Origin: Chiloscyllium plagiosum | Lineage: Eukaryota | Direction: 5' to 3' | NCBI RefSeq assembly: GCF_004010195.1 | Contig: NC_057753.1 | Span: 4,305,779-4,369,778 of the forward strand | Length of the DNA stretch: 64,000 bases | Shown: piece by piece, positions 13,246 through 59,962 of the stretch | Layout of the letters: every line of letters starts with the position of its first letter | Position numbering within the stretch: the first letter of the stretch is position 1 | Notes under the pieces: generated by a model | The model's input: the letters and a program-made list of their open reading frames with translations, nothing else | Told to the model about the DNA's origin: nothing | The model's database searches: none | Position numbers and translations under genes: made by a program

Positions 13246-14177
13246 TTACAATTTGTTGTTATATTTGCAACATTCAAATAATTTGGCAATTAACCTGCTT
13301 GGATAGATAATACAACCTTTTAACTCCATTCTGAATTTATTCTGTGTTCCTGCATAAATAAATGGGTTTATGCAGGAACTCAAAAGTTGAAGCATGTATC
13401 CAATTTCCTCCAGGCTAAATGTTGCCTCATTAACACCAGAACCTGTGTAATAAGAAACATTTACAATGCGTACATAAACTATGGTCATTAAATATAACGT
13501 GTATAACAGGATGAAACTGCCAGAGACGGCAAAGAGTAAAATAATAGACTTTCTCCGCTTCTCCATCTCTGGGTCAGCCGATTTCTCTCCATTATTTGGG
13601 GTCCTGAGTCTTCTGCGTGCTCTGTTGGCGGCTAGAATGTGCCTGATTGTCAGAGCATTGAGCAGTAGAATCGAAATGAATGGAAAACAGGGAGTCAAAA
13701 TTACAAGAAACCAGTCATATATGGCCCATGCAAGGGATGTATAGTATGTTAATTTAAATCCACACAACCAGGCGACATTGTTAATGATGTACAAAGGTTC
13801 AAATGTAAAGTACAAAAATGAACTTCGTAGAGAGCTCAATGTACAGATTGTTCCTATTACCCATGCTGCTGTTTTCTTTGTACAGTACCGTGCTTTCAGC
13901 TTCGAGCAACAGATGGCCACAAATCGATCGAAGGTAAAAGCGATCGTTAACCAGACAGAACTGTCAATAGCAGCATAGGTGACAACAATACGAAGGCTGC
14001 ATATTAGTGTGATGGACAAATAACTGAATGGGAAATACATTCCAGCGATCCGGTTCAATATTACGGCGGTGATAATGAGCAAGAGGTCTGTGACTGCCAT
14101 TGACACCAGGTAGTAAGTAATACATCTGGACAGACCGCATGTGCTTCGACACAGAATCACAATAACTACAAAATTCG
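13246..14177 (-). CDS. GPR139-like: GPR139-like class A GPCR gene 1, coding exon 2 (TM1 end to stop); spliced product 333 aa
   Basis: ORF 13246..14160 extends upstream to acceptor ttcttacag|CG (exon starts 14177). Seven hydrophobic segments, MAVTD (D2.50), C3.25, FTFDRF, ECL2 Cys, NPFIY. Joins in frame with the 70-nt exon at 17455-17524 to give GVP-A-NF. Confidence 0.92.
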
Positions 14178-14469
14178 CTGTAAGAAATACAGAGAAAAGA
14201 TCGTATGGAGAAAAGAATATTCAATGTTTGTGCTTGACAGTACAGGAACGATTGCAGGAAAAAAACACTCGACTGGCTCTGAGAAAAATAAAGCTTTTCG
14301 TGGATCTGACTGAAGATTACTTCTAACCTGCCCCTTATGATTCTCTGTGCATAATAACCATTGAGATGAAGCTATGATACCGCAATGTAATTGACCCGAA
14401 AAAAGATCAAGAATATATCAAAAAACAGTTTGAAATCATCATTGGAGCAGAAAATCAAAGCCCCTTCTC

Positions 14470-14780
14470 ACAGCAGTTATAGTCTCTTCTGATCGCTTCC
14501 ATCGTGCAAAAGGTACAAAAGCTTAAACACATGTCCCAAAAGTTTCAAGAACAGCTTCTTCCCCACTGTTATTAGACATCTGAACGGACCTCTCATATTT
14601 CAAATTCAATGTTGATCTCGCTCTTTGTGCACCTTCTCTGCAGCCATAACAACTCTATTTTTCATTCTCTTTTATTAACCAGTGCACTTTGCATTATGAT
14701 CCAACTGTACTCATGCAAAAGAAAACTTATCACTAGACCCAGGTACATGTGACCGTAATAAATCAAATCAAATCAAACAG
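14470..14780 (+). mobile_element. Rex1/Babar-type LINE 3' fragment in gene 1 intron (orthologous copies ~32935-33180 and ~47600-48210)
   Basis: ttcaagaacagcttcttcccc..gttattaga and aataaatcaaatcaaatc tail. Confidence 0.6.
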
Positions 14781-15409
14781 GAACAAACCAAATCAAATCT
14801 TCAAAAGAAAAATGGATCTGAATATGACAGAAAATAGTACAGATGAAAAACAATAATGCAATATTTATAAGCATGGAAACAAAACAGATATGGTTAATAT
14901 ATTATTGAGCAAAGGGCATGCTCTCCCTTATTAAAATTTGGCACAATCATTACATTTTAGAAACATTTGCCGCCGCTTTGTATCCACATTCCCCAGCAAT
15001 GTGGAAGCAGGCAATTCGGTGAGTCACTGGAAGCATTTCACTCACGCCCAACATAATACTCTACCCCACCATTTCACGTGGTCTGTCCACCCAGCCAACA
15101 GATCCCTATAGTGTGGGAGGAAACTTGAGCCCCCAGAGGAAACCAAAGTAGACAGTGGGAGATTGTGCAAACTCCTGTCTGACAGTCGCCAAAAAGTGGA
15201 ACGGAATGGGGGTCCATGGCACTCTTAGGTAGCAGTGCTAACCACTGAGTTTTTGACAAAAAAAACTTCATCTTCATAATGAATCAGACAATCTTCTTTC
15301 CTGACAGAATATTTGTTATCACACAACACAATTTTCGCAAATTTCTTCTGTTGATTATCTGAACTTTTATTCTTGTAGCAATTTGTTAAAAGAATGGATC
15401 ACCGAGAAA

Positions 15410-17454: not shown

Positions 17455-17524
17455 CTGGAACCCCGACAGCCGCAATGATGGGATAGTAAATGGCAAACAC
17501 CAGACCTTTTGGTATTCCATGCAT
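17455..17524 (-). CDS. GPR139-like: GPR139-like gene 1, coding exon 1 (MHGIPKGLVFAIYYPIIAAVGVP+G)
   Basis: ATG at 17524, donor CCAG|gtaac at 17455/17454, 70 nt = phase 1, matching the exon 2 acceptor phase. The same exon recurs at 37116 and 51332. An in-frame upstream ATG at 17584 is an alternative start. Confidence 0.88.
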
Positions 17525-18774
17525 ATCTATTAGTTGCCTTGGTAAATTTCTGCAATACGTAGAAGAAAAGTCACACTTATCCATGATTACAGGCTCCAGG
17601 GACACAATTAGCCAGTTTAAAATTTTTCTAAGGAAAAGAAACGAATCACAGTCATTGAAGCAAAATGCCCAGCTACTCTTGTGATCATATTTATACTTTG
17701 ATAGAATAGAACGTTCTTAAAAGTATGCGGGTCCAAAATGAAATCCAAGAGACTGCACTAAGCTTTAAGTTACATTTTCTCTCTATAGGAGCATTGGAAC
17801 AGGAATAGGCTATTCAGCGCCTTGAATATGTTCTTCCTTTCAATGCAATCTTGTCTGACTGGTGACCGAATTCCACCAACCTGCCTTTGGGCCATATCTT
17901 TTATTAACCTTTCCTAACAAAAGTAAAAGCTATTGGACATTTACAGTTAGTAACAGATCTAGCTGAAAAGAAAACCGAAACAGCCTGGAGTAATTTACAA
18001 AATCAGTTCACGGGTCCCGACATTGTAAGGGCTTATTTCCTTGATTTCAGCAGAAAGCATAAATGGCGAGAAATGCCCTGTTTTAACAGTGAACACAAGC
18101 ATTTCCTCGACCTGAGCCTTATTTAGTCTGCGTGATCACGGGTGATGTGGAGACCATTCCACATCTTCATGAGACTGTGAATGAGCCTCATCATCATTTC
18201 GTACACTCAGTATGTGAAATGCATTCGACACGGTTGCCTTCAGTGTGGCATAGTCCAGTCACATACAATAACACGTGCTGCGGCAAGGTTTATTTAAACA
18301 CAAGTATATTAAGCGTGACATAGTCCAGTAACTTCATTCAGAGTGGCTCACTTACACACAAAACAAAACAAAGGACAAAGAGCTCCATGGATGGTAATTG
18401 AAACAAAATTAATTTAGAAGCGTAAATATCTATCAATCTGTAACAATGAAGCAGGAGGTTTAGACATGCATTTTGCATTCTTTAATTCAGTGCATGTTAT
18501 ATTAGGCCATGAGGGGCTCGAACAGTAAAGGGTCTTCAACCCATCGTGTCTGCTCTCCAGCATTCACTTTCGTCATAGCTCATCTGATAATCCGTAACTG
18601 AAGGCACTTTCATGATAATCCTTGATTGTATGAATGACTAAGCATGGAATATACTTATCGAACCCACCTTAATAGCCCTCTATTGGCAAGAATTTCACAT
18701 AATCATTACACCCTGGGATTGATGGGTCCTTTGCAGATTTGATTAGAAATTTGCGAAAAAATTGGAAGCAGAAA

Positions 18775-27284: not shown

Positions 27285-27921
27285 TCGGACGACGCTGCTC
27301 CTTTAACAAGGTTAGGTTTTGCTTGGTTCTTATTTCACATGGGTCATAAACGCATAGATTCCAATTTGTCTTGTTTGGGTAGGTTTTTGGGCCGATTTGA
27401 ATATAGATAACAGATGCTTCCTCAGGAAAAAGACTTTCAAATTTAGAAAATGTGCAATGAAAGGGGAGTGGACTGTTCTCTCCCACCTCAGCTCCTCTAG
27501 TTTGGTTTCGTTGCTTTCAGCAAGCAGTCAGCTTCTTGAGGCTGCTGGTCAAAGAAAGGGTTCCATCCTGATCCTCTCTGTCTATGACATCTCCCCTTTA
27601 AGAATCGGCGTTTGATTTGACCCCTTTTTTTGCCAAGACTGTGTTTCTAGGAAAGTTGCAAGTATTTGGAATAGCATCATTAAGTTGCTATAGAGTCGAT
27701 TTGGGTTTAAAATAGTGAAGTTATTCTATTTCCTTTTCTATTTTGTTTGTGTTTTATTTGTAACCTTGCAAAAAAATTATGTTTTGCTTAAAACTAAATG
27801 TTTGGGGCAGTTGCATCATTCCTGGGATATCTACTCTGCACGTGCTTAAATCAACTGGCAAAGTTAGGGTTAGAGCTAATTTCTAGAATTATGTTGAGTG
27901 GGTCTGGCCTGATCCATGACA
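27285..27921 (+). repeat. 5' LTR of the Gypsy element
   Basis: tcggacgacgctgctcctttaacaag...gatccatgaca; aligns with 30775-31393. Confidence 0.85.
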
Positions 27922-30774
27922 GATCGGGGCTTTTTGCGGGATCTACCATTCCAAATTGGGATTAAAAGTGTTGGACATGAAAGGCAGCGAGTGGTAGGTA
28001 ATAGTGTATTTTGCTCTAGGTGTTGATTTCGATGGTAAAAATAATGGTTGAGATGTTAATAGCTGTTCTCTCGCAAAGATTTTTCTGGGCGTGCTGGAAG
28101 TGACTTTGCAGATCTACAAAAGGAAAAGCTGCTGAAGTTGGCAGTCAAGCTGGAGTTGGAACCGTCTCCATGCGTGAGGAAACAAGAGGCAATTACAACA
28201 ATAGATCAGCATTTGGATTTGCTGGGAACGCCATCAGAATATTTAGAGGTGGCTAAGATTCAATTAAAAATGAAGCATCTTGAGTTCGAAGCAAAAGAAA
28301 TGGAAATGGCAAAGAAAAGAAACTCTTTGCATTGCGATTAAAAGCAGAGGAAAGCAAAAACTAACAAATCGCGTTAGCAGAACAAAAGCTAAAAGAAAGA
28401 AAGGGAGAGAGAGGAGAGAGAAGATGAGCAAGAGGAAAGGAGAGAGGGAGTTTGAACTTTAGAAGTTGGCACTTTGACAGGAAAGTCAGCTTAAAAGGAT
28501 GAAGATGAAGGCTGAAGTTAAGCTTAGTGAGGAAGAGAATGGGGATGAGCAAACACATGGTAGCAGAAGGCTCGGTGAGAATGTGTTTAAGTATATCAAA
28601 ACATTGCCTAAATTTGATGTGAAGGATGGGGAAGCGTTTATCATCTCATTTGAAAAGTTGGCTAAGCAAGTGCAGTGGCCAGTGACCGTGTGGGATTTGT
28701 TGATCCAAACAAAGCTTATAAGTAGAGCCATTGAGGTATTGGCATCACTATCAGTGCAGGTATCTGGGGCGCATGAGGAGGTGAAGAAAGCCGTCTTAAG
28801 CGTATTTGAGCTTGTATCAGAAGCCCAATATACAACGTTCAGGAATCTGAGAAGGCACTCTGGTTAAATCTACACTGAGTTTGAAAGGATCAAACAATGT
28901 AATTTTGAGAGACGGATCAGGGCATTATAAATAGAGCAAACCCACGACGCTGTAAGAGAGGCATTATTCTGGAGGAGTTCATAAATTCACTTCCTGAGGT
29001 AGTGAGAATTCATGTAGAAGAGCAGAGAGATAAAACGGTAAGATTAGCAGCTGAAATGGCTGATGATGATGAGTTGGTCCACAAGTCAAAGTTTGGTCTT
29101 TAACATCAATATCAGTCCGTGAGGGGCAGAAATTGTGGCAAAGGAAAATCCTCACGTGGTAAGGAAAGGTATATCTCGGTGATGGTGGTAAGGATAACTT
29201 ACCACAGAGTAAAAAGCGAAACCCTTGAAGTGGAAAGAGAAGGTTAAAGGCTCCAGTGTTTTCACTGTGATAAATTAGGCCACGTGAAGTCACAGTGTTG
29301 GTGAGTTAGTAAAAGCACTGGGAGAGCCAAACGTAGGAAAACAGGATTAGCCAGTGAATTTTGTTGCAGTGGTCATGGAAAGCACAGTGGAGGTTAGAAA
29401 GCTGCACAAGAATGGACAACCTGTTCGGAGCTTGTTCAGGAGGAAGTTTTATCATCTCATTTGAAAAGTTGGCTAAGCAAGTGCAGTGGCCAGTGACCGT
29501 GTGGGATTTGTTGATCCAAACAAAGCTTATAAGTAGAGCCATTGAGATATTGGCATCACTATCAGTGCAGGTATCTGGGGCGCATGAGGAGGTGAAGAAA
29601 GACGTCTTAAGCGTATTTGAGCTGCACAAGAATGTACAACCTGTTCGGAGCTTGTTCAGGAGGAAGTGTCAGATCTTCTGAAACTATATACCAGCGAAGG
29701 TAAAGTTTACTCGCATAGGCCAAAACAGGTAAAGACATTACAATACTAAAGACACAGGATCCTCTGCATCTTTAATGTTGCGGATGAGGAAATATGTACC
29801 TCAGAAGGATTATTCTTGGAAAAAAAGTGCTCATAACGGGAATTCACTGTGAGACAAGTAATGCTAAATTACGTAGAGTGAGGTTCAAGTGTCCAGAGAA
29901 AAGATGAGAAGTGGTGGTAGGAGTACTGGACTTTGACAAAGCCCAAGTCACCTTCCTAGGCCATGGGCAAGTAACTCCATGGATGCAAAAATAAAGGTAA
30001 TTGGTGTGTTTCCATACCGTCGACAGAAAGGGCAGTGCTAAAATTCCTCGAATTGAGTGTTTTTTTTTTAATTGGAAATTCGCTGCCATATTTTGACAGT
30101 GTGACTCTCCACTCACTGAACTGCTAAGGACATACAAGAAGTTACAGTGGATGTTGAACTGTCCGAATGTAATTGACAGTCTGAAAGCTGTGTTAAACAC
30201 TGCCACAGAATCATCCACACCTAATTACGTGAAGCTGTTTAAGCTGGCTATCGATGAAAGTGATGTGGGTGTCAGCGTTGTGCTCTTTCAAGAAGACGAC
30301 AAGAAAAAACAAAGACATACCGAGTATTTCTTTAGGAAATTGAACATTCGTCTGCAGAAATATTCGACAGTTGGGGAAAACAAATTGAGCTTGGTGTTGG
30401 TGTTACAACCTTTCAACGTTTTTGTTATGAAAATCATATAGTCTGACCATAACCCATTGAAGTTTGTGGAAATATTTAACGAAAAAATCCGGATCGTTTA
30501 GGTGGAACTTGTTATTACAATCGTTCAATTTGAAAATTTTGCATGTGGCAGGACGAGAAAAGTGACAGGCGATACATTGTAGAGACTTCAGTGAGAAATG
30601 GAAGCGTTCGGTGGCAGGAGTAAATGGACTGAAACAGAATGTAGTGGTTCATATTTGCATGTTTATAATCAATGTAATGTGTATGGGTGTTGTAGTGCAC
30701 TAACAGTGTAAGATTAAGAGGTTTTAAAATGAAACCATCTTTGCATATTAATGGTTCCCTTTTTAAGGGGGTGG

Positions 30775-31393
30775 TGTGACGATGCTACTCTTTTGACAAG
30801 TCTAGGTTGCCATTGGTTTTCTTTTAGAGGGTTCATAAATGCATAGACTCCAATATGACTGGTTTGGATGAGTTTGATTATAGCTAACAGATACTGCCTC
30901 GGACGAAAAGCTGTCAAGTCGAAAAAAAAATACACTTGGACAATAATAGGAGAGTCGTCATTTCTCCCAGTACAGGTTTTTTTCTGGTTTGTTTGGGTTT
31001 GACTTGAGTTGCGCAAGCAGTCAGTTTTTTGAGGCTGCTGGTTAAAGTAACAGTTCCAAGCTGATCCTTTCTGTCTCTGACATCACTCCTGTAAGAACCT
31101 GGGTTTCAGTTTATCCTTTTTGCCAATGCGGTGTCTATGGGGATATTGCAAGTATTTGGAACAGCACCATTAAGTTGCTATCGAATCGACTAGGTATTTA
31201 AATAGTTAAGTTAATCTATGTTCTGTTCTCTTTTCTTGGTGTTTCATTCGGCAAACTTGCAAATAAATCCCGGTTGGGGCAGTTGCATCACGCCTGGAAT
31301 ATTCACTAAACACTTACTTTAAGCAGCTAGCAAAGTTAGCATCCGAGCTACGTTCTTGAAGTGATTTTCGAGGGTCTCGCTGGGTCCATAAGA
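30775..31393 (+). repeat. 3' LTR of the Gypsy element
   Basis: tgtgacgatgctactcttttgacaag...ggtccataaga, preceded by a polypurine tract. Confidence 0.85.
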
Positions 31394-31933: not shown

Positions 31934-32841
31934 TCATTGAATTAGTTTGGCAATTAAACTATATGGATAGATAAGTGTATTCTTCAGTGCCATTCTGAAT
32001 TCACCCTGAGTTCCTGCATAAATGAATGGGTTTATACAGGAACCCAAAAGCTGAAGCATGTATCCAGTTTCCTCCAGACTAAATGTTGCCTCACTGTTGT
32101 CAGAACCTGTGTAATAAGGAACATTTACAATTCGTACATAAACTATGGTCATGAAATATATTGTGTATAACAGGACGAAGCTGCTAGAGATGGCAAAGAG
32201 TAAAATAATAGACTTTCTCCGCTTCTCCATCTCTGGGTCACTCTGCTTCTTTTCAATATTTGGATTCCGGAGTCTCCTGCGTGCTCTGTTGGCAGACAGG
32301 ATGTGCCTGATTGTCATAGAATTGAGCAGTAAGATCGAAATGAATGGAACACATGGAGTGATAATTACATGGAACCAGTCATATATGGTCCATGCAGGGG
32401 ATGTATAGTATGTTAATTTAAATGTACAGAACCAGGCAACATTGTTAATGACGTACAAAGGTTCAAACATAAAGTACAAAACTGAATTTCTCAGACAGCT
32501 CAATGTACAGATTGTTCCTATTACCCATGCTGCTGTTTTCTTTGCACAGTACCGTGCTTTCAGCTTAGAGCAACAGATGGCCACAAATCGATCGAAGGTA
32601 AAAGCTGTTGTTAACCAGGCAGAACTGTCAATAGCAGAATAGGTTACAACAATGCGAAGGCTGCATATTGGTGTGATGGACAAATAACTGAATGGGAAAT
32701 AAATTCCACTGATCCGGTTCAATATTACCGCAGTGATAATCAGCAAGAGGTCTGTCACTGCCATGGACACCAGGTAGCAAATGACACAGTTAGACAGACC
32801 ACATCTGCTTCGACGCAGAATCACAATAACTGCAAAGTTTG
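31934..32841 (-). CDS. GPR139-like: GPR139-like class A GPCR gene 2, coding exon 2; spliced product 325 aa
   Basis: Acceptor ttttacag|CA at 32841, open to TGA at 31934; DRF, NPFIY and 7TM pattern; close paralog of gene 1. Confidence 0.92.
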
Positions 32842-34604: not shown

Positions 34605-34900
34605 GGGCGGCACGGTGGTTCGCACTGCTGCCTCACAGCACCAGGATCCTGAGGTTGATTCCCACCTGTCTGTGTGGAGTTTGCACATTCTCCCTGTGTC
34701 TGCGTGGGTTTCCTCCCACAATCCAAAGATGTGCAGGTGTAGTATATTGGCCATGCTAAATTGCCTGTAGTGCTAGGTGCGTTAGTCAGAGGTAAATATA
34801 GGGTAGGGGAACGGGTTTGGGTGGGTAACTCTTCGGAGGGGCAGTGTGGACTTGTTGGGCTGAAGGGCCTGTTCCCACACTATAGAGAATCTAATCTAGT
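34605..34900 (+). mobile_element. HE1/V-type SINE specific to gene 2 intron
   Basis: gggcggcacggtgg..gcactgctgcctcacag head; absent at the gene 3 site (~49828). Confidence 0.85.
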
Positions 34901-35000
34901 CAAATGAAACTGAATGAACGTTATAACCGTACTCAAGAACGTTTGCCCCAGATGCCAGACTCAACATAAATTACGCTGGACACAGAATGTCGAGGAAGTA

Positions 35001-37046: not shown

Positions 37047-37116
37047 CTGGAACACCGATAGCTGCAATGATGGGATAGTAAATGGAAAACAGCAGACCTT
37101 TTGGTATTCCATGCAT
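37047..37116 (-). CDS. GPR139-like: GPR139-like gene 2, coding exon 1 (MHGIPKGLLFSIYYPIIAAIGVP+G)
   Basis: ATG at 37116, donor CCAG|gtact at 37047/37046, 70 nt, phase 1. Confidence 0.88.
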
Positions 37117-38537
37117 AGCTGTCTGCTGCTCTGGATCAGTTCTGTAACCCGTAGAAGGAAAGTCTCATTTATCCATGCTTTCAGGCTCTAGGGACACAAT
37201 CAGCCTGTTTGATTCTTTCAAAAGAGAAAGAAAAAAAAAACGAATTGCGCTCATTGAAACAAAAAGCACAGCTACTCCTGGGATCATGTTTATATTTAGA
37301 TGACATCGAAAGCTCTTCAAAAATACTTGTCCAAAATGAAATCCAAGAGACTGCGTAATGGTTTATGTTGCACCTTATCCCTGAAGGAGTACAGGAACAG
37401 AAATAGGCCATTCAAGCTCTCAAGCGTGTTCTGCCTTTCAATGTAATCACGACTGATTGTGGCCGAACTCAAATGCTTGCCTTTGGGCTACATCCTTCAA
37501 TAGCTTTGCGAAACAAAACAAAGCTATTGTCGATTTACAATTATCAACAGGCTACCATCAGAAAATGGAAAACAAAGCACGCAAGGATACTTTACAAAAT
37601 CAGTTGAAGGGACCCTCCAGCATAAAGTCTCAGTTCCATGGTATCAGCAGAAGGCATAATTGGCGAGAATTAGACTATCTGTAAGCGTGAACACAGCCGA
37701 CTCTTCAAACTGAGTCTTATCCAGTCTGTGATTACGAGTCAACTTGCCTTCACCTCTTGTGATAGCTGAAGTGGGTACGCAAAGGTCTGGCAGTTGTCAC
37801 TTTTACAAATGATTGTTGTGAGAATGTAGAGGGCATTGTTAGGAAGTTTGGGAATGATACTAAAATTAGTGGCAGATTCGACAGTAAGGAAGGTCATCTA
37901 AGATTACTGTCGTCTTGATCAATTAGGCAATGGGCTGTGGAGTGGCAGATGGTGCTTAATTTGAAAAATGAGGTTTTGATTTTTTGTAAGACAAACAAGG
38001 GCAGGACTTTTTCAATTAAAAGTAAGGGATGGTAGGCTGCTGGAGCACAGAAACCTAGATGTTCAAGCGCATGATTCTTTTAAATTTGACATGGAGGTGG
38101 TGTGGTTGTACTTAGCATGTTTGACTTTGTTGCTCACTGCTTTGGGTATAGCAGTTAAGCCATATTGTGGTTGTTTTGGTGAAGCCTCTTCGGAAATACT
38201 GCACAGTCCTTAGTGCTCCTTTATAGGAAGGCCAGTAAGTTGGAGAGGGTTCAGAAAAGATTTGCCAGGATGATGCTGGTCTCATTAATTGGTGAAAGCA
38301 GACGTCTAGATCATCTACATCAATTTCCTTAGATTTTCTTTTCTATTTGCAACCAACTGGATTACATCATTTAGCCATATTGTACTTAAGCTACTGAGCA
38401 TTTACACACTCGGCTTGTCCAAATACCACTGGAATATATCTGCATCCTTCTGACAGCACAGTTAGTTTCTCTCCTCGATAAGCATCGCTCCAACATTCAA
38501 ACTCAGCACCATTCAAGACAAAACAGTTGTGTGGCAG

Positions 38538-40189: not shown

Positions 40190-40910
40190 CAAAATACTTG
40201 CAAAATTCTCTTGAAGACTCACCACCAAGACTTGGCTGCCATTCTTTTACTGGCACTGCCTCACAATCCTGAAGTATTGCTCCATTAAGAGTTGCAGTAG
40301 TTCAAGGCATTTTGGCATCTGTGCAGTTATGGGCGTCACTTCAGAGAAAGGCTGCGACTGCCTTGGAAAGTGCACAGAAGGACATTACTGGAATGTGTCC
40401 AAGAAGGAGAAAATTCAGCTTTGAGGCTAGATTGAAGAAGGTGAGACTTACTCCACTGGAGGAAAGAAGACAGAGGAGACTTGATACAGGTTTTTAAAAT
40501 CATGAGTGGTTGGACAGCGTAGATAGTAAGAAGCTGTTCTCATTCATGAAGGAAGACAAAAGAACGAGAGGGCATGATCTTCAAGTGAGGCACATTTGAA
40601 ACAAGATGATCTGAAATCTTTTCACATCGGTAGTTGATAGGATATGGAATGTACTGGGTGATGGTTGAGTCACGTTCAATTGAGGTATTGAAGAGGGCTT
40701 TGGATAATGGTTTCGATAGCAATACTGTGCAGGGATATGGGCAGTAGATTAACGCTGGAAAGTAGATGGTAGAGTCAAGGTAGATTGAATGAATTTATTA
40801 TGCACAATTATAATTTTGTGATTTAGAGAGAGGGTTAAGCTCATTTTAGGAATAATGTTGTTTTTAGTGTTTCGTGTCGGAAATAATGTGAATGACTGGT
40901 CTGGTGAGTG

Positions 40911-41025
40911 AGGACTGCAGATGCAGGAGATCAGAGCTGAAAAATCTGCTGCTGGAAAAGCGCAGCAGGTGAGGCAGCATCCAACGAGCAGGAGAATCGA
41001 CGTTTCGGGTATAAGCCCTTCTTCA
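40911..41025. mobile_element. Short Penelope-like terminal-repeat insertion with 13-bp TSD and hammerhead core
   Basis: TSD ggtctggtgagtg at 40898-40910 and 41026-41038; minus strand CTGAAGA-AGGGCTTATACCC-GAAAC-GTC. Confidence 0.75.
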
Positions 41026-41574
41026 GGTCTGGTGAGTGTTCAGCTCAATGTTGGGAGTCCATATTGTGGTTCCAGTAAGTTGTCAGTTTCTTTTGAGAGG
41101 TTTAATTCTGTATTGTTGATTAGTGCTTGGAGATTTATCCTGGAACTTAATTCAGCGTTGGGTGCGAACATCGCTTTCTGTGTCAGAGGCAGACTGAGCA
41201 GTTGGCTTGCAGTTCAATTTTGAGGATCAGTATTCTCAGATTTGGAGTCAGTTTGGATGCCAATCTTGGGCCTTAATGGTGGGGCATTGTTCAGGATATG
41301 AGTGGAGTTGTGTTCAGTGGGAAAGTTGGCACTGCAGTCATGGGGTCATTGATTAGTGATCCACAAGGCCTGTATTGGTGTCAATCAGTGCTGCAGCCTG
41401 TGTGTTTGATTGAACTCACTGTCATCATCAATACTGTGCATCAGTTTCGATACCTGTCTGATGCCAGCTTAAACTTTGCACTTCTCGTCTTTGATAGATA
41501 TTGCAAACAATCCAACACCACAGATTCAATGGACAGTCCACTCAGGGTGCCATTGAAACATTTGCTGCATGAGG

Positions 41575-41905
41575 ATGGCGCGGTGGATCATTGTTTAGCA
41601 CTGCTACCTCACAGCGCCAGCGACCCAGGATCAAGTCTAGCTTTGGGTGACTGTCCATGCGGTGATTGCACAAACTCCCTCTGTCACCACAGCGTTCCTC
41701 TGGGTGATCCAGTTTGCTCCCACAGTCGAAAGATGTGCCGGTTAGCTTATTGGCCATGTGAAATTACATATAGAGATCAGTGATGGGTTCGTTAGGTGCA
41801 TTAGTCAGGGATAAATACATTTGAGGGGGAATGGCTTTGGAATGGTTTGCTCTCAGATTGTTGGTTTGGGCTAAAGGGCCTGTTTCCACGCTATCGGGAT
41901 TCTAA
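41575..41905 (+). mobile_element. HE1/V-type SINE at a duplication junction (probable chimera)
   Basis: Left flank matches that of the SINE at 54573; right flank matches that of the SINE at 8247-8598. Confidence 0.8.
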
Positions 41906-44584
41906 TTTCTAATCATGTGAGGAAGAAGTGACTGACCAGAGTGAGGGCCCAGTTGATCAGTGACAGTGAAGGGCACATTGTCATGGAGATAGGGGAGGTC
42001 CTTAGTGAATATTTTCCTTCAGAATTCACTACTAACAGGGACCTACCCGTTTCTGAGGACAGCGTGAAACAGGCTGATGTACTCGAACATGTCAATGTTA
42101 CAAAGGAAGATGTGGTGAAAATTTTGAAAAAAAAAATAAGGATAGGTAAGTCTCCTCGGCCAGAGAGGAGATACCCAATGTTACTAAAGAAAAGTGAGAG
42201 AAAGGATACTGTATCTTTGGCGATGATCTTTGTGTCCTCACTGTCCAGTGGCGGAGTGTGAGATGATTTGGACGATGGCAAACGTTAATCTCTGGTGCAA
42301 AAAGTGGAAGAGGAATAATCCTGGGAATTACTGACCAGTCAATCTGTGGTGGGCAAATTATTGGAGAGGATTTTGAGGGACAGGATTTCTGATTATTTCC
42401 AAAGCCATCGTTTGATTAGAGATGGTCAGCATGGCTTTGTGAAGGGCAGTTCATGTACCACAAGCCTTACTGAATTCTTTCGTTGACCAAGTGGTTGTAT
42501 TGTACGAAGATTTTTGCAAGACGTTTCATGATGTTCCACACGGTGGTTCATTCAGAAAGTAAGGAGGCATGGGATACAGGAAACGTTGTCTGCCTGGATA
42601 CAGACTTGACTGATCCATAGAAGAGAGAAGGTGGTAGTAAATAGGGAGGATTCAGCCTGGAGCTCTGTAACCGAAGATCTACATGAATATGTTCTGGGAA
42701 CTTTGAATTTTGTGATTTTTGGAAGTGAATTGGTAAAAACATGCAAGGGTACGTTAGTAAGTTTTCGATGACACCAAGGTTGTTGAAGTGGTGGATAGTG
42801 TGGAGGGCTGTTGTAGGTTGCAAAGGGACATTGACCGGTAGCAGAACCTGGCTGAGAAATGGCAGGTGGTTTCCAAACAGTAAAAGTGTGAAGTGATTTA
42901 TTTTGGAAGTTCGAATTTGAATGCAGAACACAGGGTTAAAAGCAGGATTCTTGGCGCTCTAGAGGAACAGAGGGATCTTGGGATCCATGTCCACAAATTC
43001 TTCAAAGTTCCTACCGAGGTGGATAGGGTTGTGAAGAAGGCGCATGGAGGATATGCTGCAGCTCTATAGAATCCTGGTTCAAGCACGCTTGGAATATTGT
43101 GTTCATTTCCGTTCACCTCTTTACAGGAAGAATGTGGAAGTTTAAGGGAGGGCGCTGAGAAGCTTTACCAGCATGTCTCCTGGTCTGGAGGACATGTCTT
43201 ATGAAGAATGGTTGAGTGAGCTGAAGCTGACGGGTGAGAGGCGACTTGATAGAGGTGTGCAAGATGATGAGAGGCTTAGTTAGAGTGAATAGTCAGAGCC
43301 TTTTTTTCCGATGGCAGAAATGGCTATCACAAGCGGGATTAATTTTAAGGTGACTTGGTGAAGGTTTAGGGGAGATACCAAATGGCTGTTCTTTACATAG
43401 AGAGTTGTAGGTGCGTGGGATACACTGCCAGTGGCAGTGATAGAGCAGATATATTAGGGACATATCAGCGGCTCTTGGATAGGCACATGAATGATAGTAA
43501 AATAAAGGGTATGTATATTATTTGATCTAAGAGTAGGATAAAAGGAAAGCACAACATCAAGGGCCGAAGAGTTGTACTGTGCTGAACTGTTCTACGTTCT
43601 ATGTTCCATGTTCTTAAGGACAGATGGTATTCAGATGAATAAATTTCATTGACAAGTTTTGCTGCATATTAGCAATCTTATGAAAAGCAAGTGATTACAT
43701 TGAAGTATGCTCTGTACCACTTAAAAAGAAAGCATTGAATGTTGGATTCTTTACAAACTGGAGTAGGTCAGTTTCAGAAGTGATTATGGAAGCGAGGAGA
43801 AAGCGAGGACTGCAGATACTGGCGAGTCAGAGTTGAAATGTGTCGCGCTGGAAAAACACAGCAGGTCAGACAGCATCCGACGATCAGGACAGTTTCAGGC
43901 AAAAGCCATTCGTCAGGAATCCATCCAGGTTTATTTGCCGCTTTTCTATTTAATAATTAATAAAGCTCGTTCACGTGAATGTTCGTAGCTCATGGTCATG
44001 CATATCGCTGCTGAACCATCTTGCATTCAATATGCTGGACAGCAAATTCTAAAGGATAGCGTATACCTAATTAGCTTGATCAAAATTTAGCAACGCATAA
44101 CATATTTTAACTGAAAGCTACCACTGTAGAGCAGTTGTGGAACTCCAGTACTAAAAGTGAGGGCATTAAATCCAAACCATCAGATGTAGATATAAACAAC
44201 TGGAGATTGTAAGTGGTTCTTTGGTATGCCAGTCGACGCTAGTTACAACTTGAAGATGGAAAGGTCACTCCAGAGAAGAAAGTCAATTGTCAGTGACTGT
44301 ACCATTGAACCTGATAACAATTCCAGGGAGCAATCTTATTGCTAATTTAAATTCAGCAAACACTGACTCCTTTATCCGTAGATGGAGCACAATATTCAGC
44401 GCATTGATAATGTACAGATTCGCCGGCCTACTGTCAGGCTGTCAGACTATACAATTCCAATTTAGCTCATCAATGACTCGTCAGAATTTACTGACGTGGA
44501 CGAGGAAGGAAAGACAGTGAAAGAAAGAGGGAAGTGTACAGATAGTGGAAAAATATGAGAGGTAGAGAACAAAAACATGAAAAA
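41905..44584 (+). repeat. Segmental duplicate of ~8595-11368 (CR1 RT + tail + Penelope fragment + non-repeat block)
   Basis: Shared junctions: ttctaatttctaat(t/c)atgtgaggaa; CR1 tail followed by ggacagatggtattcag; ends at agagaacaaa(t/a)acatga. Confidence 0.92.
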
Positions 44585-46403: not shown

Positions 46404-47311
46404 TCATTCACGTGGTTTGGCAATTAAACTGTATGGATAGATAAGTGTATTCTTCAGTACCATTCTGAATTCACCCTGAGTTCCTGCATAAATGAATGGG
46501 TTTATACAGGAACCCAAAAGCTGAAGCATGTATCCAATTTCCTCCAGACTAAATGTTGCCTCACTGTTGTCAGAACCTGTGTAATAAGGAACATTTACAA
46601 TTCATACATAAACTATGGTCATGAAATATATTGTGTATAACAGGACGAAGCTGCCAGAGATGGCAAAGAGTAAAATAATAGATTTTCTCCGCTTCTCCAT
46701 CTCTGGGTCACTCTGCTTCTTTTCAATATTTGGGTTCCGGAGTCTCCTGCGTGCTCTGTTGGCAGCCAGGATGTGCCTGATTGTCATAGAATTGAGCAGT
46801 AAGATCGAAATGAATGGAACACATGGAGTCAAAATTACATGGAACCAGTCATATATGGTCCATGCAAGGGACGTATAGTATGTTAATTTAAATGCACACA
46901 ACCAGGCAACATTGTTAATGACGTACAAAGGTTCAAACATTAAGTACAAAACTGAATTTCTCAGACAGCTCAATGTACAGATTGTTCCTATTACCCATGC
47001 TGCTGTTTCCTTTGTACAGTACCGTGCTTTCAGCTTAGAGTAACAGATGGCCACAAATCGATCGAAGGTAAAAGCGACCGTTAACCAGACAGAACTGTCA
47101 ACAGCCGCATAGGTGACAAGCATACGAAAGCTGCATATTGGTGTGATGGACAAATAACTGAATGGGAAATAAATTCCAGTGATCCGGTTCAATATTACCG
47201 CGGTGATAATCAGCAAGAGGTCTGCAACAGCCATAGACACCAGGTAGTAAATGACACATCTGGACAGACCGCATCTGCTTCGGCACATAATCACAATGAC
47301 TGCAAAATTAG
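46404..47311 (-). pseudogene. GPR139-like: GPR139-like gene 3, exon 2 with premature stop (R260*) after TM6; probable young pseudogene
   Basis: Acceptor ttcttccag|CT at 47311. TGA at 46604-46602 where gene 2 has CGA. The frame stays open past it through TM7 (CINPFIY) to a TGA at 46406-46404, giving the same 908-nt exon length as gene 2. Confidence 0.85.
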
Positions 47312-51262: not shown

Positions 51263-51332
51263 CTGGAACACCGATAGCTGCAATGATGGGATAGTAAATG
51301 GAAAACACCAGACCTTTTGGTATTCCATGCAT
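51263..51332 (-). pseudogene. GPR139-like: GPR139-like gene 3, exon 1 (MHGIPKGLVFSIYYPIIAAIGVP+G), intact
   Basis: ATG at 51332, donor CCAG|gtact at 51263/51262; nearly identical to gene 2 exon 1. Confidence 0.85.
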
Positions 51333-53237
51333 AGCTGTCTGCTGCACTGGATCAGTTCTGTAACCCGTAGAAGGAAAGTCACATTTATCCATGTTTCCAG
51401 GCTCTAGGGACACAATCAGCCTGTTTGATTCTTTCAATAGAAAAAAAAAACGAATTGCACTCATTGAAACAAAAAACACAGCTACTCCTGGGATCATGTT
51501 TATATTTAGATGGCATCGAAAGCTCTTCACAAAATGCTGGTCCAAAATGAAATACAGGAGATTTACGTTACATTTTATCCCTGAAGGAGTACGTGAACAG
51601 AAATAGGCCATTCAGGCTCTCAAGCATGTTCTGCCTTTCAATGTAATCACGACTGATTGGTGGCCGACCTCATATGCTCGCCTTTGGGCCACACCCTTTG
51701 ATACCTTTGCGAAACAAAAGCAAACTATTGTAGATTTAAAATTATCAACAGACTCACATGAGAAAACGAAAAACAAAACAAGCGGGGGATATTTTACAAA
51801 ATCAGTTGAAGGGACCCTCCAGCGTAAAATCTCACTTCCATGGTGTCAGCAGCAGGCATAATTGGCGAGAATTAGACTATCTGTAAGCGTGAACAGAGCC
51901 GATTCTTGGAACTGAGTCTTATCCAGTCTGTGATCACGAGTCAACTTGCCTTCACCTCTTGAGATAGCTGAAGTGGGTACGCAAAGGTCTGGCAGTTGTC
52001 ACTTATACAAATGATTGGTGTGAGAATGTAGAGGACATGGTTAGTAAGATTGAGAATGATACTAAAAATAGTGGCAGAGTCGACGGTAAGGAAGGTCATC
52101 TAAGATTACTATCGTCTTGATCAATTAGGCAATTAAAAGTAGGGGCTGGGGCTGCTGGAGCACAGAAACCTAGATGGTCAAGTGCATAATTCTTTTAAAT
52201 TTGACATGGAGATGGTGTAGTTGTATTTAGCATGTTTGACTTTGTTGCTCACTGCTTTGGGTATAGCAGTTAAGCCATTTTGTGGTTGTTTTGGCGAAGC
52301 CTCGTCGGGAATACTGCGCAGTCCTTAGTGCTCCTTTATAGGAAGGCCAGTAAGTTGAAGAGGGTTCAGAAAAGATTTGCCAGGATGAAGCTGATCTCAA
52401 TATTTGGTGAAAGCAGACGTCTAGATCTTCTACATCAATTTTTTTTTACATTTTCCTTCCTATTTGCAACCCAACTGGATTACCTCATTTGTCCATATTG
52501 TACTTAATCTACTAAGCGTTTACCCTCTCCGCTTGTCCAAATTCCACTGGAATATATCTGCATCCTTCTGACAGCATAGTTAGTTTCTCTCTGAGATAAA
52601 CATAGCTCCAACATTCAAGCTCAGCAACATTCAAGACAAAACAGTTGTGTGGCAGGAAATAGTTGCAAAATTCCCTTAAAACTCACCATCGAGACTTAAC
52701 TGCCATTCTTTTAGCGTCACTGGGTGGCAATCCTGAAGTGTTCCTGCATTAAGAGCTGCATTAGCTCAAGGCATTTTGGAGTATGTGCACCACTTCAGAG
52801 AAAAGATTAAACTGCATTGGAAAGTGCGCAGAAGGAAATTACTGGAGAGGTTCCAAGTAGGAGAAAATTCAGCAATGAGGGTCGATTGAAGATGGTGAGA
52901 CTTACTCCACTGGAGGAACGAAGATAGAGGAGACTTGATATAGGTTTTTTAAATCATGTGTGTTTGGACAGTATAGATAGCAAGAAGCTGTTCTCACTCA
53001 TGAAGGAAGACATAAGAACGAGAGGACATAAGTTTAACATGAGTTACAATTGAAACAAAATGATCTGAAATCTTTTCACATCGGTAGCTGTTAAGATATG
53101 GAGTGTACTGGATAGAAATATGGCTGTACCAAGTTCAGCCCAGGTATTGAAGAGGGCATTGGATAATGCTTTTGGATAGTAATAATGTGCAAGGATATGG
53201 AGGAAGAGACAGGTGATTAACGCTGGAAAATAGATGG

Positions 53238-55974: not shown

Positions 55975-58172
55975 TACAACACCGAACAGCCCCTTCGCGT
56001 CTCGATGCTGTGCTGACCTTTTATCCTGCTCAAAAACCAAACTAACCCAAATACCGTTAATTTTACTGTCAGCCATGTACTTATCCAGAGTCGCTTAAAT
56101 GTCCTTAATATTTCTGACTCAATAACTGGTGGCAGTGTATTCCACGCACTTACCAATCTCTGTCTGAAGAACCTACCTCTGACATCACCCCTAAACCTTT
56201 CTCCAATCACCTTAAAATTATGCCCCCTGCATGATATCCATTCTGCCCTGGGAAAATGTCTCTGGCTATCCACGCTATCTATGTCTCTCATCATCTTGTA
56301 CACCTCTAACACATCGCTGCTCATCCTTCTTCACTCCAATGAGAACAGCCTAGCTCCCTCAAGCGTTCTTAAGAACATTTATGAGACAACTTTCAACCTT
56401 TGGTGTGAGTGGCATGGTGAAACATATATATTGTATTATTACACATTTGGAATTAGATCTTTTTTACAAACACAGGTAGATGGATTTTATTTATTTCTGT
56501 GAGTCAAATAATTTTGCAACATACTTTTTTTTTTAATAAGGTCCGAAACAATGGCCTAAATACTTCAGTTTTAAGAAAGCATGTGATTGTAGTCAAACAC
56601 TTTATAGCTTATAGTTTTTTTAAAATTCCTTGATAGTTATCATGGATAAAAGCTTTACACTTTAATAGTTCGAATAATTATCATAAGGCAATGTTGCCTG
56701 AAGTCGATTCCTTAAGGAAAGTAGTTTTGAATTCAGTTCAGAAGATTTCAGACTTCAGTTCAACACAGAGTAGCTTCACCGAGCAGGGGAATCAAGTTAG
56801 GTAATTAGGAGAGCTAGTTATCTGATTTTAGAGTCATAGAGTTTTACAGCATGGAAACGGACCCTTCAGTCTAACTCATCCATGCCGATCAGTTTTCCTA
56901 AACTGTTCTAATCCCTGCATTTGACCCATATTCCTCTAAACATTTCCTGTCCATGCACTAGTCCAACAGTCTTTTACATTTTCATTGTATTCATCTCTAC
57001 CACTTCCTCTGGTAGTGAATTCCATAGACATTCTACCCTCTGTGTGACCCTCCGGACCTTTTTACTCTTTCTCCTCTCACCTTGAATCTATGCCCTCTCG
57101 ATTTGGACTTCGCTACCCTGGAGAAAAGACCTGAGCTCTTCCTCTTAGCTATGCTCCTCATGATTTACTAAATCTCTATAAGGTCATCTTTCAGCTTCCT
57201 CTGATCCAATGATGGGCCTAAACTTTTCACTTTGTATATTAACAATCGAGACGAAGGAACTGACAGCATTCTGTCTACGTTTGCAGATGATAGGTAAAGG
57301 GACAGGTAGCATTGAGGAGTTAGGGGAGGCTGCATAAGGATTCGGAAAGGTTAGGAGAGTCGTTTAAGAAATAGCAGATGGAGTCTAACATGGGGAAAAC
57401 GTGAGGTCATTCATTTTGATAGGAAGAATAGAGGCACGGTCTAATTTCTAAATGGGGAAATATTCAGAAATCTGAAGTGCAAAGAGACTTAGGAGTTGTA
57501 GCCCAGGAGTCTCTCAACGTAATCTTGCAGATTGAGTCAGGAATTAAAAAGAAAAGTATAATGAGAGCAATTATTTCGAGAGGACAGAAATATAAAAGCA
57601 GAGATGTACTTCTGAGGCTCTATAAGGTTCTGGTCAGGCCACATTTGGAGTATTGTGAGCAGTTATGGGCCCCATATCTCAGGAAGAATGGATGGGCCCT
57701 GGAATGTGTCCAGTGAAGATTCATAAGAAGATCCAGAAATGAAGAACTTAGTATATGAGGAATGTTTGAGGACTCTGGGTCTATATTCGTTGGAGTTTAG
57801 AATGATGAGGGGGATGCAATTGAAGCTCACAGAATAATGAAAGGCCTGGACAGAATGGATGTTAGGGAGATGATTCCATTGGTAGGAGAGACCAGCACCC
57901 AAGGCCATAGGAATAGAGTAAAGGGAAGACCTTTTCGAACAGAGATAAGGGGAAACCTCTTATGCCAGAGTGTGGCGAATCTATAGAATTCACTGCCACA
58001 GAAGGCGGTGGAGGCCAGGTCATTGACAGTATATTTAAGACGGAGATAGATAGGTTCTTGATTGTAAGGAGATCAAAGGTTACGGGGATAAAGCGGGAAA
58101 ATGGGAGAAACTTATCAGCCAAGATTGAATAATGGAACAGACCTGAATGGCCTTATTTCTGCTCCTATGTCT
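55975..58172. mobile_element. CR1 3' fragments: minus ~55975-56360 and ~56830-57210, plus ~57210-58172
   Basis: EVYKMMR..RGHNFKV (55944..56324); LYKVLVRPHLEYC (57477..57716). Confidence 0.8.
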
Positions 58173-59060
58173 TAAGGTTTTATAAACATGGGAATGAACG
58201 CCATAAATGTTAAATGTGCTGATTCTTGGGATGGCAGGAATGGCGAATGAAAAGAGATTGGAATAGTTTGGGCTACATTCACTCAAGCCGTAGTTATTAG
58301 AATCGCAGAGCAAGCTTGAGCGCCAAATGATCTACCCGTGCACATAGTTTTTATATTTCAATGTTTTTCATGGCAATGCACTCAGAAAAGAATCATTTAA
58401 AAACGCTTTCAATAGTTCAGAGGAAATAAAAGAAAATTTGAAATGAGAAAAGTGTTCAATGGGAATGAATATTTATGATGTATAATTATGGGAAACTAGT
58501 TGGATGTTTATTTAGATATTGATGTTATTATCTTTCTAACTAATATCTATATTCAACTGCCATGTTTGTTTTTTCTTCTTCTGTGTGATATATGGAAGTT
58601 CTTTGCAAAAACCTTCTCTGGACTCATTTGAATATGGTGTGATGAGTTCCCATGTTAACCAATTGCAAAAAGAAAATGCATCACAAAGCCCGTGAAGCCT
58701 AGTTTGATTCTGGGATCCAGCTTGTACAGAACCATCACCAGCTGGGGTCATTGCTGAGATATTAGAAGACCCACAATAACTGATCTTTCCTACTCATTCT
58801 GCAGATACATAGACCCAGCGAATGGCGTCGGAGTACATCTGAATTTGATAATGTTATCAAGGAATTTTAGCTTTCCCTTTCAACGTAAGTAATGGCTCGA
58901 TGTTTTCCAGCACGTCAGCAGAAATTATTCTTTCGGACAACTGCCAACACAAATGAAAAATATTATTTAATTTACATCTCATAAATACCAAAGTTGCCTT
59001 TCTCTGAGAGAATACCTCGGTATGTGTCTTGTTGCAGAATGCATACACAATTTATGCATT

Positions 59061-59962
59061 CTATCTACATAATTTAGCCAACAGGTTCAATGGATATTCC
59101 ATTAGGTTCTTTAACTCCTGTCTGAACTTTCTCTGAGTTACCACGTAGATGAATGTGTTTGTGCAGCAACTCAACAGTTGGAGCATGTTTGCACTTTCTT
59201 GCAGGATGAATCCTGGATCATTGAAGCCATTGATAAGATAATGGGGCAAAAGCAGTCTATGGAAGTAGTATACCACATACGTCATCCACAACAGGATGAA
59301 ACTGCCAGAGATAGCAAAGAGCAAAATGATGGACCTGTGCCTGTTCTCCAGTTCTGTGTCATTCTGATTCTCTCTGATGTTCTGGGCTCGGAGTCTCCTG
59401 CGATTTCTGTTGGCTGCTATAATAAATCTGATGGTCAGGGCATTAAGAACAAAGATCAGAAAGAATGGCAGACATGGGGTTACAATGCAGTCAATCCATA
59501 CGAAAGCACCCCATACTGGTGAAGTGTAAAATACTTTCTTCATTTTGCAATGCCACGGGATATTGTTCATAATGTAAATGGGTTCATGCAGAAAATACCA
59601 GGGAACACTCTTTAAACATCCTGCTGTGCAAACAGTTGCTATTATTGTGATTGCCATTTTCTCAGTGCAATATTTTCCTTTCAGCTTCGGACAACAAATA
59701 ACCACAAATCGATCGACAGTAAAAACAACTGTTAACCAGACAGAGCAGTCCCTGGATGCATAGATTAAAGAAATCTTGAGGCTGCATACAGGAGTTATTG
59801 ACAGGAAACTAGTTGGGAAATAAACACCGGGAATACGGTTTAGCAGCACAGCAGTGATGATGACCAGGAGATCCGTCACCGCCATGGAGACCAGATACCA
59901 TCTGATACACCTGGAGAGACCACATCGTCCTCGAGATAAGACCATAATGGCCAGTAAACTAG
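59061..59962 (-). CDS. GPR139-like: GPR139-like class A GPCR gene 4, coding exon 2 (divergent paralog); exon 1 not found in window
   Basis: Acceptor ctaccttgcag|CT at 59962 in the same phase as the other genes; ORF 59061..59945; RCGLSRC, MAVTD, FTVDRF, LLW (W6.48), NTFIY. Confidence 0.88.

Follow-up and report, generated by a model that had tools for sequence, protein, structure and literature searches.

Within the window, that is, the whole 64,000-nucleotide stretch of DNA that was analysed, four paralogous receptor genes (A to D) lie on the minus strand between positions 13246 and 59962 (Table 1). Pfam 7tm_1 was found in four of four exons (E 5e-24 to 8e-20), with scores of 72-86 bits against a curated cut-off of 30.5. 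Together with the gene models, these matches bear out an earlier note on this DNA, which had described four same-strand paralogues within 47 kb. The three levels of divergence given in that note were also recovered; amino acid identity is 91% between B and C, 82-83% between A and either of them, and 52-56% between D and the others. Gene B is 79% identical to a whale shark protein. The window is also rich in LINE and SINE remnants.

Table 1. Positions in the window of the coding exons, the premature stop codon and the candidate upstream sites
Feature	Position (strand)	Description	Basis or status
Gene A coding exon 2	13246..14177 (-)	TM1 end to stop; intact 333-aa class A GPCR	
Gene A coding exon 1	17455..17524 (-)	70 nt; N-terminus and most of TM1	tblastn, GT donor; spliced frame open
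Homeodomain-like + EBF(O/E)-like site	17594..17610 (-)	~70-86 nt upstream of gene A ATG	lead only
Gene B coding exon 2	31934..32841 (-)	intact 325-aa GPCR	
Gene B coding exon 1	37047..37116 (-)	70 nt	
Homeodomain-like + EBF(O/E)-like site	37186..37202 (-)	upstream of gene B; weaker homeodomain half	
Gene C coding exon 2	46404..47311 (-)	one stop breaks reading frame in this assembly	
Premature TGA, gene C	46602..46604 (-)	near TM6 end; Arg codon in A and B	
Gene C coding exon 1	51263..51332 (-)	70 nt	
Homeodomain-like + EBF(O/E)-like site	51402..51418 (-)	upstream of gene C; weaker homeodomain half	
Gene D coding exon 2	59061..59962 (-)	open, 299 codons	

The length of exon 1 in genes A-C places their introns in phase 1, with GT..AG ends, and the acceptor of gene D has the same phase, in agreement with the common exon-2 acceptor phase claimed previously. 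Exon 1 of gene D was not found in the window when 110 family N-termini were used as queries; the sole match, eight residues inside a LINE remnant, was rejected. Either this exon has diverged too far or it is located outside the window. Translation starts at the methionine of an MHG motif in 80 of 88 relatives. For this reason, and because gene B has a stop at the corresponding place, the in-frame ATG found 20 codons further upstream in A and C was not accepted as the start codon. The RCGLSRC-type signature previously assigned to ICL1 takes the form TCGLSRC in A and RCGLSNC in B, and a CGL[SP] motif was present in 116 of 120 close relatives. The short N-terminus is real as well, with N1.50 at residue 25. 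However, this residue is at 25-28 in single-copy relatives, and thus the short N-terminus is ancestral rather than specific to the family and is not diagnostic of it.

The earlier note had taken the stop codon in one paralogue as a sign of pseudogenisation. The stop is present in the assembly, but a 706-base contig from sequencing run X1 with only seven differences from gene C (99% identical; gene B differs there at 123 positions) carries a sense base at position 46604, accounting for 35.9 of a contig depth of 35.9. Since this copy comes from another sample, either the stop in gene C belongs to an allele that is not fixed or the assembly is in error here, and the stop does not establish pseudogenisation. 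The single contig at this site in run X2 matches gene B and is uninformative on C. Genes B and C also appear to be mosaic. Only 11 of 44 variable sites join B with C over the initial 330 nt of exon 2, compared with 70 of 86 in the remainder. This pattern suggests gene conversion, with a breakpoint that was picked by eye and a longest-run test that was not significant (p 0.12).

Relationship to GPR139 and GPR142

GPR139 and GPR142 are orphan class A receptors that respond to Trp/Phe and to ACTH/MSH peptides, and the earlier note had called the array GPR139-like. As that note anticipated, relatives of the array genes are automatically labelled 'probable GPR139', and clusters in the ESM Atlas bear the same name. 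GPR139 was indeed the best PDB match for the family (family profile E 1.2e-22, next match 9.9e-19), for a related amphibian gene and for a group consisting of coelacanth protein P0235 and its relatives (group X); it was also the best solved relative of gene D (E 5.7e-8). OR, TAAR, V1R, V2R and T2R receptors were absent from the best 60 of 528 PDB matches, and Pfam gave 7tm_1 only. Like the shark family, GPR139 and GPR142 are two-exon genes. Unlike it, they are single-copy, and P6.50, which is missing from all four array genes, is mostly lost in the shark family. Identity to human GPR139 is about 25% (about 63 identities in 250 residues, counted by eye in the gene D match); the human and zebrafish GPR139 orthologues are 70% identical.

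In our tree the shark family grouped with an amphibian and sturgeon gene (support 100/99) within a vertebrate clade (97/93), although monophyly of the shark family by itself was weak (82/49). The outgroup consisted of amphioxus proteins named GPR139, and true vertebrate GPR139/142 sequences were absent from the tree. The sister gene gave one match per species in 20 amphibian species and was also present in a sturgeon. Group X has its exon boundary at the same TM1 position as the shark family, but was rejected as its orthologue because it has shark members of its own. The vertebrate clade also holds GPR139-related orphans of coelacanth, other fish and amphibians, which makes the shark family part of a GPR210-like group. 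GPR210 comprises three non-mammalian orphan subtypes named under GPR139/142 (Rinne et al. 2019, PMC6504862), and our tree likewise contains three vertebrate lineages, with a short N-terminus in common. In contrast to our analysis, that study covered no cartilaginous fish and described no expansion. By their low identity and the tree, the array genes are not orthologues of GPR139 or GPR142 but appear to be members of a sister orphan lineage in their neighbourhood, beside the GPR210 subtypes, with its own single-copy amphibian/sturgeon orthologue. Sensing of aromatic amino acids is not implied either, since the Trp/Phe pocket of GPR139 (E108, F109, H187, W241, R244 and N271) is largely not kept; the number of identical residues out of six is 0 in A, 1 in B, 1 in C and 2 in D.

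Size, spread and selection of the family

The family extends far beyond four genes. In one search, 1,651 of 3,017 candidates were related at E<=0.001, a set whose tail may contain non-family GPCRs. Among the best 120 of the 1,651, the 119 that were named were all from sharks, representing 11 species. The horn shark Heterodontus contributed 72 of these 120, each of them full-length across the exon-2 core, and clustering at 97% identity left all 72 separate; the whale shark contributed 18. One whale shark model (P0102) is fused with zinc-finger domains. At E<=1e-30 there were 109 clusters (50% identity), and the 19 of the 76 best that were looked up all came from sharks, rays or a chimaera; rays and a chimaera also carry the family. 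Subfamilies common to sharks and rays in the tree point to their very long retention. Relative to unique bins, contig depth in the bin containing the TM3 motif was higher by a factor of about 200-260 in both X1 and X2; depth is not copy number and a repeat match is possible, so this excess, which would fit hundreds of paralogues, was not counted as evidence. These searches support the existence in cartilaginous fishes of a very large, lineage-specific and rapidly duplicating family with repertoire-like diversity, as the earlier note had supposed. In its large size, clustering and restriction to one lineage the family resembles a chemoreceptor repertoire.

We found no description of the family in the literature searched, functional or otherwise, in keeping with the earlier suggestion that its function is undescribed. 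Term searches of supplements returned only an orthogroup line for GPR142 in PMC8455134 and nothing in PMC13188829 or PMC11406177.

Variation across the receptor was compared between 34 predicted pocket positions and other TM positions. Entropy was higher in the pocket in the shark family, both among 119 near rows (1.23 vs 0.76) and among 56 wide rows (2.40 vs 1.58), whereas it was lower in 20 amphibian orthologues (0.10 vs 0.48) and in 108 group-X orthologues (0.77 vs 0.97). In the wide set the pocket exceeded outer-half non-pocket positions (p 0.04) and the excess was significant against all controls; in the near set it was significant against other TM positions only (p 0.16 against outer-half positions). 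Charged residues made up 23% of the pocket in the wide set, compared with 3-6% of control positions. The scaffold, by contrast, is near-invariant across deep paralogues, with N1.50, D2.50, C3.25, DRF, P5.50, F6.44 and Y7.53 kept; gene D has S1.50 and T7.50. Values of dN/dS were 0.40-0.50 among A-C and about 0.2 against D. Together these values point to a scaffold under purifying selection with diversified pocket-facing positions, and a hypervariable predicted pocket on a conserved scaffold is also typical of chemoreceptor repertoires. The pocket variability might instead reflect relaxed constraint. Genes A-C no longer have the E3.32 and R6.51 of GPR139 and contain the acidic residues D3.37, D5.39 and E7.35, which would make amines or basic peptides more likely ligands than free Trp/Phe. 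A model of the gene B 7TM domain (pLDDT 85.8) has a seven-helix fold with a TM-score of about 0.7 to peptide receptors, which were in general the closest. The CCK-A receptor ranked first and GPR139 second with nearly equal scores, so the fold does not discriminate between them.

Possible roles of the receptors

Our favoured interpretation, to which we give about an even chance, is that the array consists of tandem copies within a very large two-exon class A GPCR family of cartilaginous fishes that likely serves as a putative chemosensory repertoire. The starting gene appears to be an ancestral orphan related to GPR139/142, with one copy in each amphibian species and in a sturgeon, and local duplication and probable gene conversion amplified it into arrays that lie on several chromosomes. 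The copies are each predicted to take a waterborne ligand of their own in a diversified pocket and to signal through G proteins in sensory cells, which, at a guess, may be olfactory microvillous neurons or other external chemosensory cells. Coupling would be of the Gq/Go type; GPR139 couples mainly to Gq/11, and shark olfactory neurons express Go and TRPC2. Like OR, TAAR, V1R-ORA, V2R, T2R and FPR genes, the family shows tandem arrays, species-specific blooms, short genes and a variable pocket on a conserved scaffold. TAARs and FPRs were also derived from a non-sensory class A receptor. Those families differ in ancestry, however, the shark genes matching 7tm_1 only and GPR139 best among solved structures. 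Among the points against a chemosensory repertoire are that GPR139 is a brain receptor and that many genes are tandemly duplicated in elasmobranchs as genomes enlarge (bioRxiv 2025.06.08.657570).

The libraries covered gave no clear sign of expression. In single-cell run X5 (unstated tissue), of which about 2% was read, neither spliced reads nor reads covering exon 1 or the 3′ end turned up; exon 2 drew a few partial reads, which fell at conserved motifs and mostly ran opposite to the gene, an orientation judged from the poly-A reads that a repeat gave in this run. A catshark 'brain & olfactory epithelium' library listed no GPCR among its top 50 genes, and V2Rs were missed too (PMC11979771). 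A lead is the homeodomain-like plus EBF(O/E)-like site upstream of A-C, since mouse OR expression is driven by this pair of factors (PMC5608512). The pattern was fitted post hoc, and the three paralogues represent one event. EBF is active in B cells too. The site perhaps belongs to a 5′ UTR exon that a likely splice acceptor precedes. The main olfactory family of the catshark comprises 34 V2R genes, and labelled cells per mm of its epithelium numbered 5.9 for the V2R co-receptor, 2.8 for taar1a and 0.45 for ora2, in an almost continuous neuron layer (PMC10116579). This shortfall would leave room for a missing receptor family, which is our reading and not a claim of those authors. We tentatively raise the more specific but rather doubtful proposal that the genes constitute a vertebrate olfactory receptor family not recognised before, hundreds strong and of GPR139-related orphan origin, that replaces the nearly absent ORs and TAARs in cartilaginous fishes, with one or a few expressed per microvillous neuron under the homeodomain/EBF element.

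The main rival interpretation, unlikely but worth weighing, is that the genes form an immune or skin sentinel repertoire resembling FPRs or MRGPRs, sensing microbial, parasite or damage peptides in leukocytes, mast-like cells or cutaneous nerve endings. Mammalian MRGPR/MAS-related receptors are clustered class A orphans with short N-termini, lineage-specific blooms and diverse cationic ligands; by our searches, however, their lineage is unrelated to the shark family, and they are expressed in nociceptors or mast cells. Birth-and-death evolution and pocket diversity fit such a repertoire equally well, acidic pockets would suit cationic peptides, and the P0102 fusion hints at a location among other fast-turnover arrays. 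The niche may also be vacant, as MAS1 and related receptors are reported to be absent from cartilaginous fishes (PMC8455134). On the other hand, the relatives of the lineage are neuropeptide and amino-acid receptors (PMC8557429), and no immune expression was seen in a term search of the supplement to a nurse-shark spleen paper (PMC10529500, one 4,750-character file), which weighs slightly against this role.

It seems improbable that the genes encode a diversified set of receptors for endogenous signals, be they neuropeptides, metabolites or gamete signals, that act in brain, gut, rectal gland or gonad and are comparable to the protostome Wamide/RFamide receptor radiation. GPR139/142 are sister to that protostome expansion (PMC8557429), the predicted fold is closest to peptide receptors, and testis and rectal gland express some catshark V2Rs. 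However, fixed-ligand receptors keep their pocket, as the amphibian orthologues do, and dozens of species-specific copies with divergent pockets would require a matching ligand expansion; we know of none. About as improbable is a mostly non-adaptive expansion by unequal crossing-over in repeat-rich chromosomes, with pocket variation as relaxed constraint on redundant copies, which the LINE/SINE density of the window, the scaling of batoid tandem clusters with genome size (bioRxiv 2025.06.08.657570), the nonsense allele in C, the likely B-C conversion and the lack of transcripts in the portion of X5 that was read would fit, but which the dN/dS values of 0.2-0.5, the near-invariant activation motifs, the 72 full-length horn shark proteins among the best 120 relatives, the long-retained shark-ray subfamilies and the concentration of variation at polar pocket positions argue against.

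Returning to the chemosensory interpretation, sharks have large olfactory organs, yet their receptor repertoire is reported to be small, with about 34 V2Rs predominating, and to show a 'relative paucity' of GPCRs. In one shark, a single subfamily already accounts for no fewer than 72 distinct full-length proteins. Surveys limited to OR, TAAR, V1R and V2R genes would miss this family, and automatic annotation masks it under one name. Wherever it is expressed, probably few GPCR families of cartilaginous fishes are larger. The single gene conserved in amphibians would offer an ancestral ligand for comparison. If the olfactory reading were true, the family would be larger than that of the V2Rs, and the view that shark olfaction relies on only about 35 V2R receptors would be overturned. 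It would thus bear on how sharks discriminate odours with so few receptors, a question that is testable with existing catshark RNA-seq.

Structure of the receptor array

Six-frame translation and tblastn of the window identified four 7TM exons, all on the minus strand, together with first exons for three of them, in line with the four same-strand paralogues of the earlier note. Joining a 70-nt exon 1 to exon 2 gave open proteins of 333 aa (gene A) and 325 aa (gene B). The spliced frame of gene C comprised 325 codons interrupted by one stop, and only exon 2, with an open frame, was identified for gene D. All four exons contained a Pfam 7tm_1 domain, and the intron was in phase 1, immediately before N1.50. 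Protein identity was 91% between B and C, 82–83% between A and either of these, and 52–56% between D and the others, matching the three levels of divergence claimed previously. NG86 dN/dS was 0.40–0.50 within A–C and 0.19–0.20 against D. The introns of B and C were ~80–87% alike, and because the flanks were duplicated as well, we conclude that A–D are segmental tandem copies.

The earlier note had also described one paralogue as carrying a stop codon. This stop, a CpG-type change, is present in gene C here. In contigs from two genomic runs carrying the same label (X1 and X2), aligned to gene C, the sense base at 46604 accounted for the entire contig depth (35.9/35.9 in X1 and 10.4/10.4 in X2), but the X2 contig matches gene B. 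The X1 contigs include one of 706 bases that differed from C at 7 positions, whereas B differed at 123 positions there; it is a gene C allele or a closer unseen paralogue. Thus, the stop is either unfixed or an assembly error. Exon 2 was mosaic: within its first 330 nt, B and C grouped together at 11 of the 44 variable sites, as opposed to 70 of 86 thereafter (Fisher p 5e-10, breakpoint picked by eye); a longest-run test on this pattern gave p 0.12. The mosaic pattern suggests gene conversion.

Features of the window (nucleotide positions)
Position	Feature	Details	Reading
2535–3071	ORF fragment	no match in Pfam search	resembles GIY-YIG endonuclease of Penelope-like elements
8242–11368	decayed LINE copy	75% alike to 41565–44584, same orientation	the two are possible substrates of unequal crossing-over
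12174–12614	inverted repeat	arms 164 nt, 96% complementary, gap 113 nt; ~630 bases past gene A stop	looks like a MITE
17627–17645	pyrimidine tract with terminal AG	~105 nt 5′ of ATG; counterparts at 37.2 kb and 51.4 kb	suggests a non-coding first exon ahead of A–C
27288–31389	degenerate long direct repeats	27.3–27.9 and 30.8–31.4 kb, ~3.5 kb apart; gag-like ORF pieces and internal 176-nt duplication between; no match in Pfam search	probably what is left of an old LTR retroelement, close beyond gene B
~34606–34903	SINE-like insertion	in gene B intron, not in gene C intron	
35000–36432	717-base tandem duplication	in gene B intron; 97% identical	recent
38741–44584	decayed LINE copies	endonuclease domain PF14529 at 39577–40140; among several LINE remnants that separate the genes	
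46604–46602	premature TGA	gene C	
60719–62035	decayed LINE copy		

Extent and relatives of the family

A search with gene B exon 2 returned 1,651 matches out of 3,017 candidates. Its top 120 (the near set) were 50–79% identical; 11 shark species account for 119 of them, all named, and the other is unnamed. Heterodontus francisci contributed 72 of these, spread over five contigs; each of the 72 covered 95% or more of the exon-2 core, and clustering at 97% identity still gave 72 clusters. Whale shark contributed 18, of which 13 share one contig, and a whale shark protein was the closest relative of the window genes (79–80%). In an exhaustive search with D, the matches with E≤1e-30 fell into 109 clusters at 50% identity, and all 19 proteins looked up among the 76 best D matches came from sharks, rays (Hypanus, Leucoraja, Rhinoraja, Narcine) or Callorhinchus. 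These numbers support the lineage-specific expansion proposed in the earlier note, and the proteins are annotated automatically as ‘probable GPR139’, as it had anticipated. In one whale shark model (P0102), a family member is joined to C2H2 zinc fingers, which suggests that the arrays adjoin zinc-finger clusters.

The nearest bony-vertebrate protein was a conserved gene that matched once per species in 20 amphibians and a sturgeon (25 matches among 1,675 candidates, in which 90% clustering could hide close copies). In a careful 42-row tree, whose rows include no true GPR139/142 sequence and with which a quick 90-row tree agreed, the shark family and this gene were joined at 100/99, group X (a separate GPR139-related orphan lineage) was set apart at 100/99, and amphioxus fell outside; monophyly of the shark family alone was weak (82/49). 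Group X spans coelacanth, teleosts, amphibians and reptiles and has its own shark orthologues. Among solved structures, human GPR139 was the best relative for D and the family profile, and likewise for the amphibian gene and group X, but its identity to D was ~25%. In the passages covered of Rinne et al. 2019 (PMC6504862), which included no shark genome, three such orphans were named GPR210, the closest named group to the shark family; those of PMC8557429 link the GPR139/142 neighbourhood to Wamide/RFamide receptors. Group X itself (P0235, P0290–P0407) is conserved and apparently single-copy, occurring in sharks and fishes as well as in amphibians, turtles and squamates; birds and mammals were not found among its best 120 matches. 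Two of its models were merged with TMEM183A, hinting that the two genes are neighbours.

No paper on this expansion was found among the PMC open access and bioRxiv papers listed, which for broad queries were 15–40 of up to 1,700; within this scope, the earlier note's view that the function appears undescribed held. In the passages covered, Sharma et al. 2019 and Syed et al. 2023 (PMC10116579) treat canonical receptor families only, Tan et al. 2021 (PMC8455134) state a paucity of GPCRs, and the Squalomix preprint (bioRxiv 2025.06.08.657570) surveys tandem clusters; the covered text of the preprint does not name the family, and its figures or supplements may list it or hold expression.

Diversification of the ligand pocket

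Ballesteros–Weinstein positions were assigned by motif, and 34 taken to be pocket-facing were compared with other TM positions. Six of these 34 are confirmed in PMC7318219. After removal of rows with <85% TM-column coverage, we kept 119/120 near-set, 56/76 wide-set (broader shark-family), 20/20 amphibian and 108/120 group X rows. Entropy was higher in the pocket than at other TM positions in the near set (1.23 vs 0.76, p 3e-4) and the wide set (2.40 vs 1.58, p 8e-6), whereas the corresponding values were 0.10 vs 0.48 for the amphibian gene and 0.77 vs 0.97 for group X. When the comparison was tightened to non-pocket positions of the outer half, the excess persisted in the wide set (p 0.04) and was not significant in the near set (p 0.16). 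Charged residues made up 23% of pocket letters versus 3–6% in controls. The shark-family genes were amplified in tandem, their scaffold was kept by purifying selection, and their pocket diversified, in contrast with the conserved single-copy orthologue.

GPR139's six agonist-site residues were poorly kept (none in A, one each in B and C, two in D); the amphibian gene retains three, plus a Lys replacing Arg. Since D3.37, D5.39 and E7.35 are present in A–C and a basic residue at 6.51 is absent, their ligands would be cationic, either amines or basic peptides. Gene B was modelled confidently as a bundle of seven TM helices in which ECL2 forms a hairpin, and a fold search with this model singled out no receptor. 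In the amphibian orthologue (P0232, P0408–P0427), the pocket was invariant, and the unusual pair S1.50 and N2.50, found in 20/20 species, would alter the sodium site. This undescribed orphan deserves deorphanising.

Site of action and competing readings

We propose that each copy would bind a distinct ligand, with coupling of Gq/Go type, and would act in sensory cells. The chances of a chemosensory role are evenly balanced; an olfactory role proper is possible but doubtful. Two observations point indirectly to sensory use. In the passages covered of Syed et al. 2023 (PMC10116579), labelled cells per mm were 5.9 for v2r1, 2.8 for taar1a and 0.45 for ora2, while the neurons themselves form a nearly unbroken layer; we infer that many of those neurons have no assigned receptor, which may reflect probe sensitivity. 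In addition, A, B and C each have, upstream, a homeodomain-like site directly adjoining an EBF-like one (3 window matches vs 0.20 expected, for a pattern fitted afterwards on paralogous copies). One of 13 extended models (Heterodontus) translates the stretch, with identical spacing, and mouse OR genes are driven by Lhx2/Ebf pairs (PMC5608512, passages covered). This site may instead sit in a 5′ UTR exon. Counting against sensory use, the 50 top genes that Mayeur et al. 2024 list for olfactory/brain tissue include no GPCR (PMC11979771, passages covered); the supplement of that paper may list the family or its expression. Spliced, exon-1 and 3′-end reads were all absent from the ~2% read of a single-cell run (X5) of unknown tissue.

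Among the alternatives to a chemosensory role, an immune or skin sentinel repertoire is unlikely, receptors for endogenous signals are improbable, and largely neutral amplification, set beside the purifying selection on the scaffold, is the least probable. The large receptor repertoire is real, apparently undescribed and misnamed by annotation, and its function is cheaply testable.
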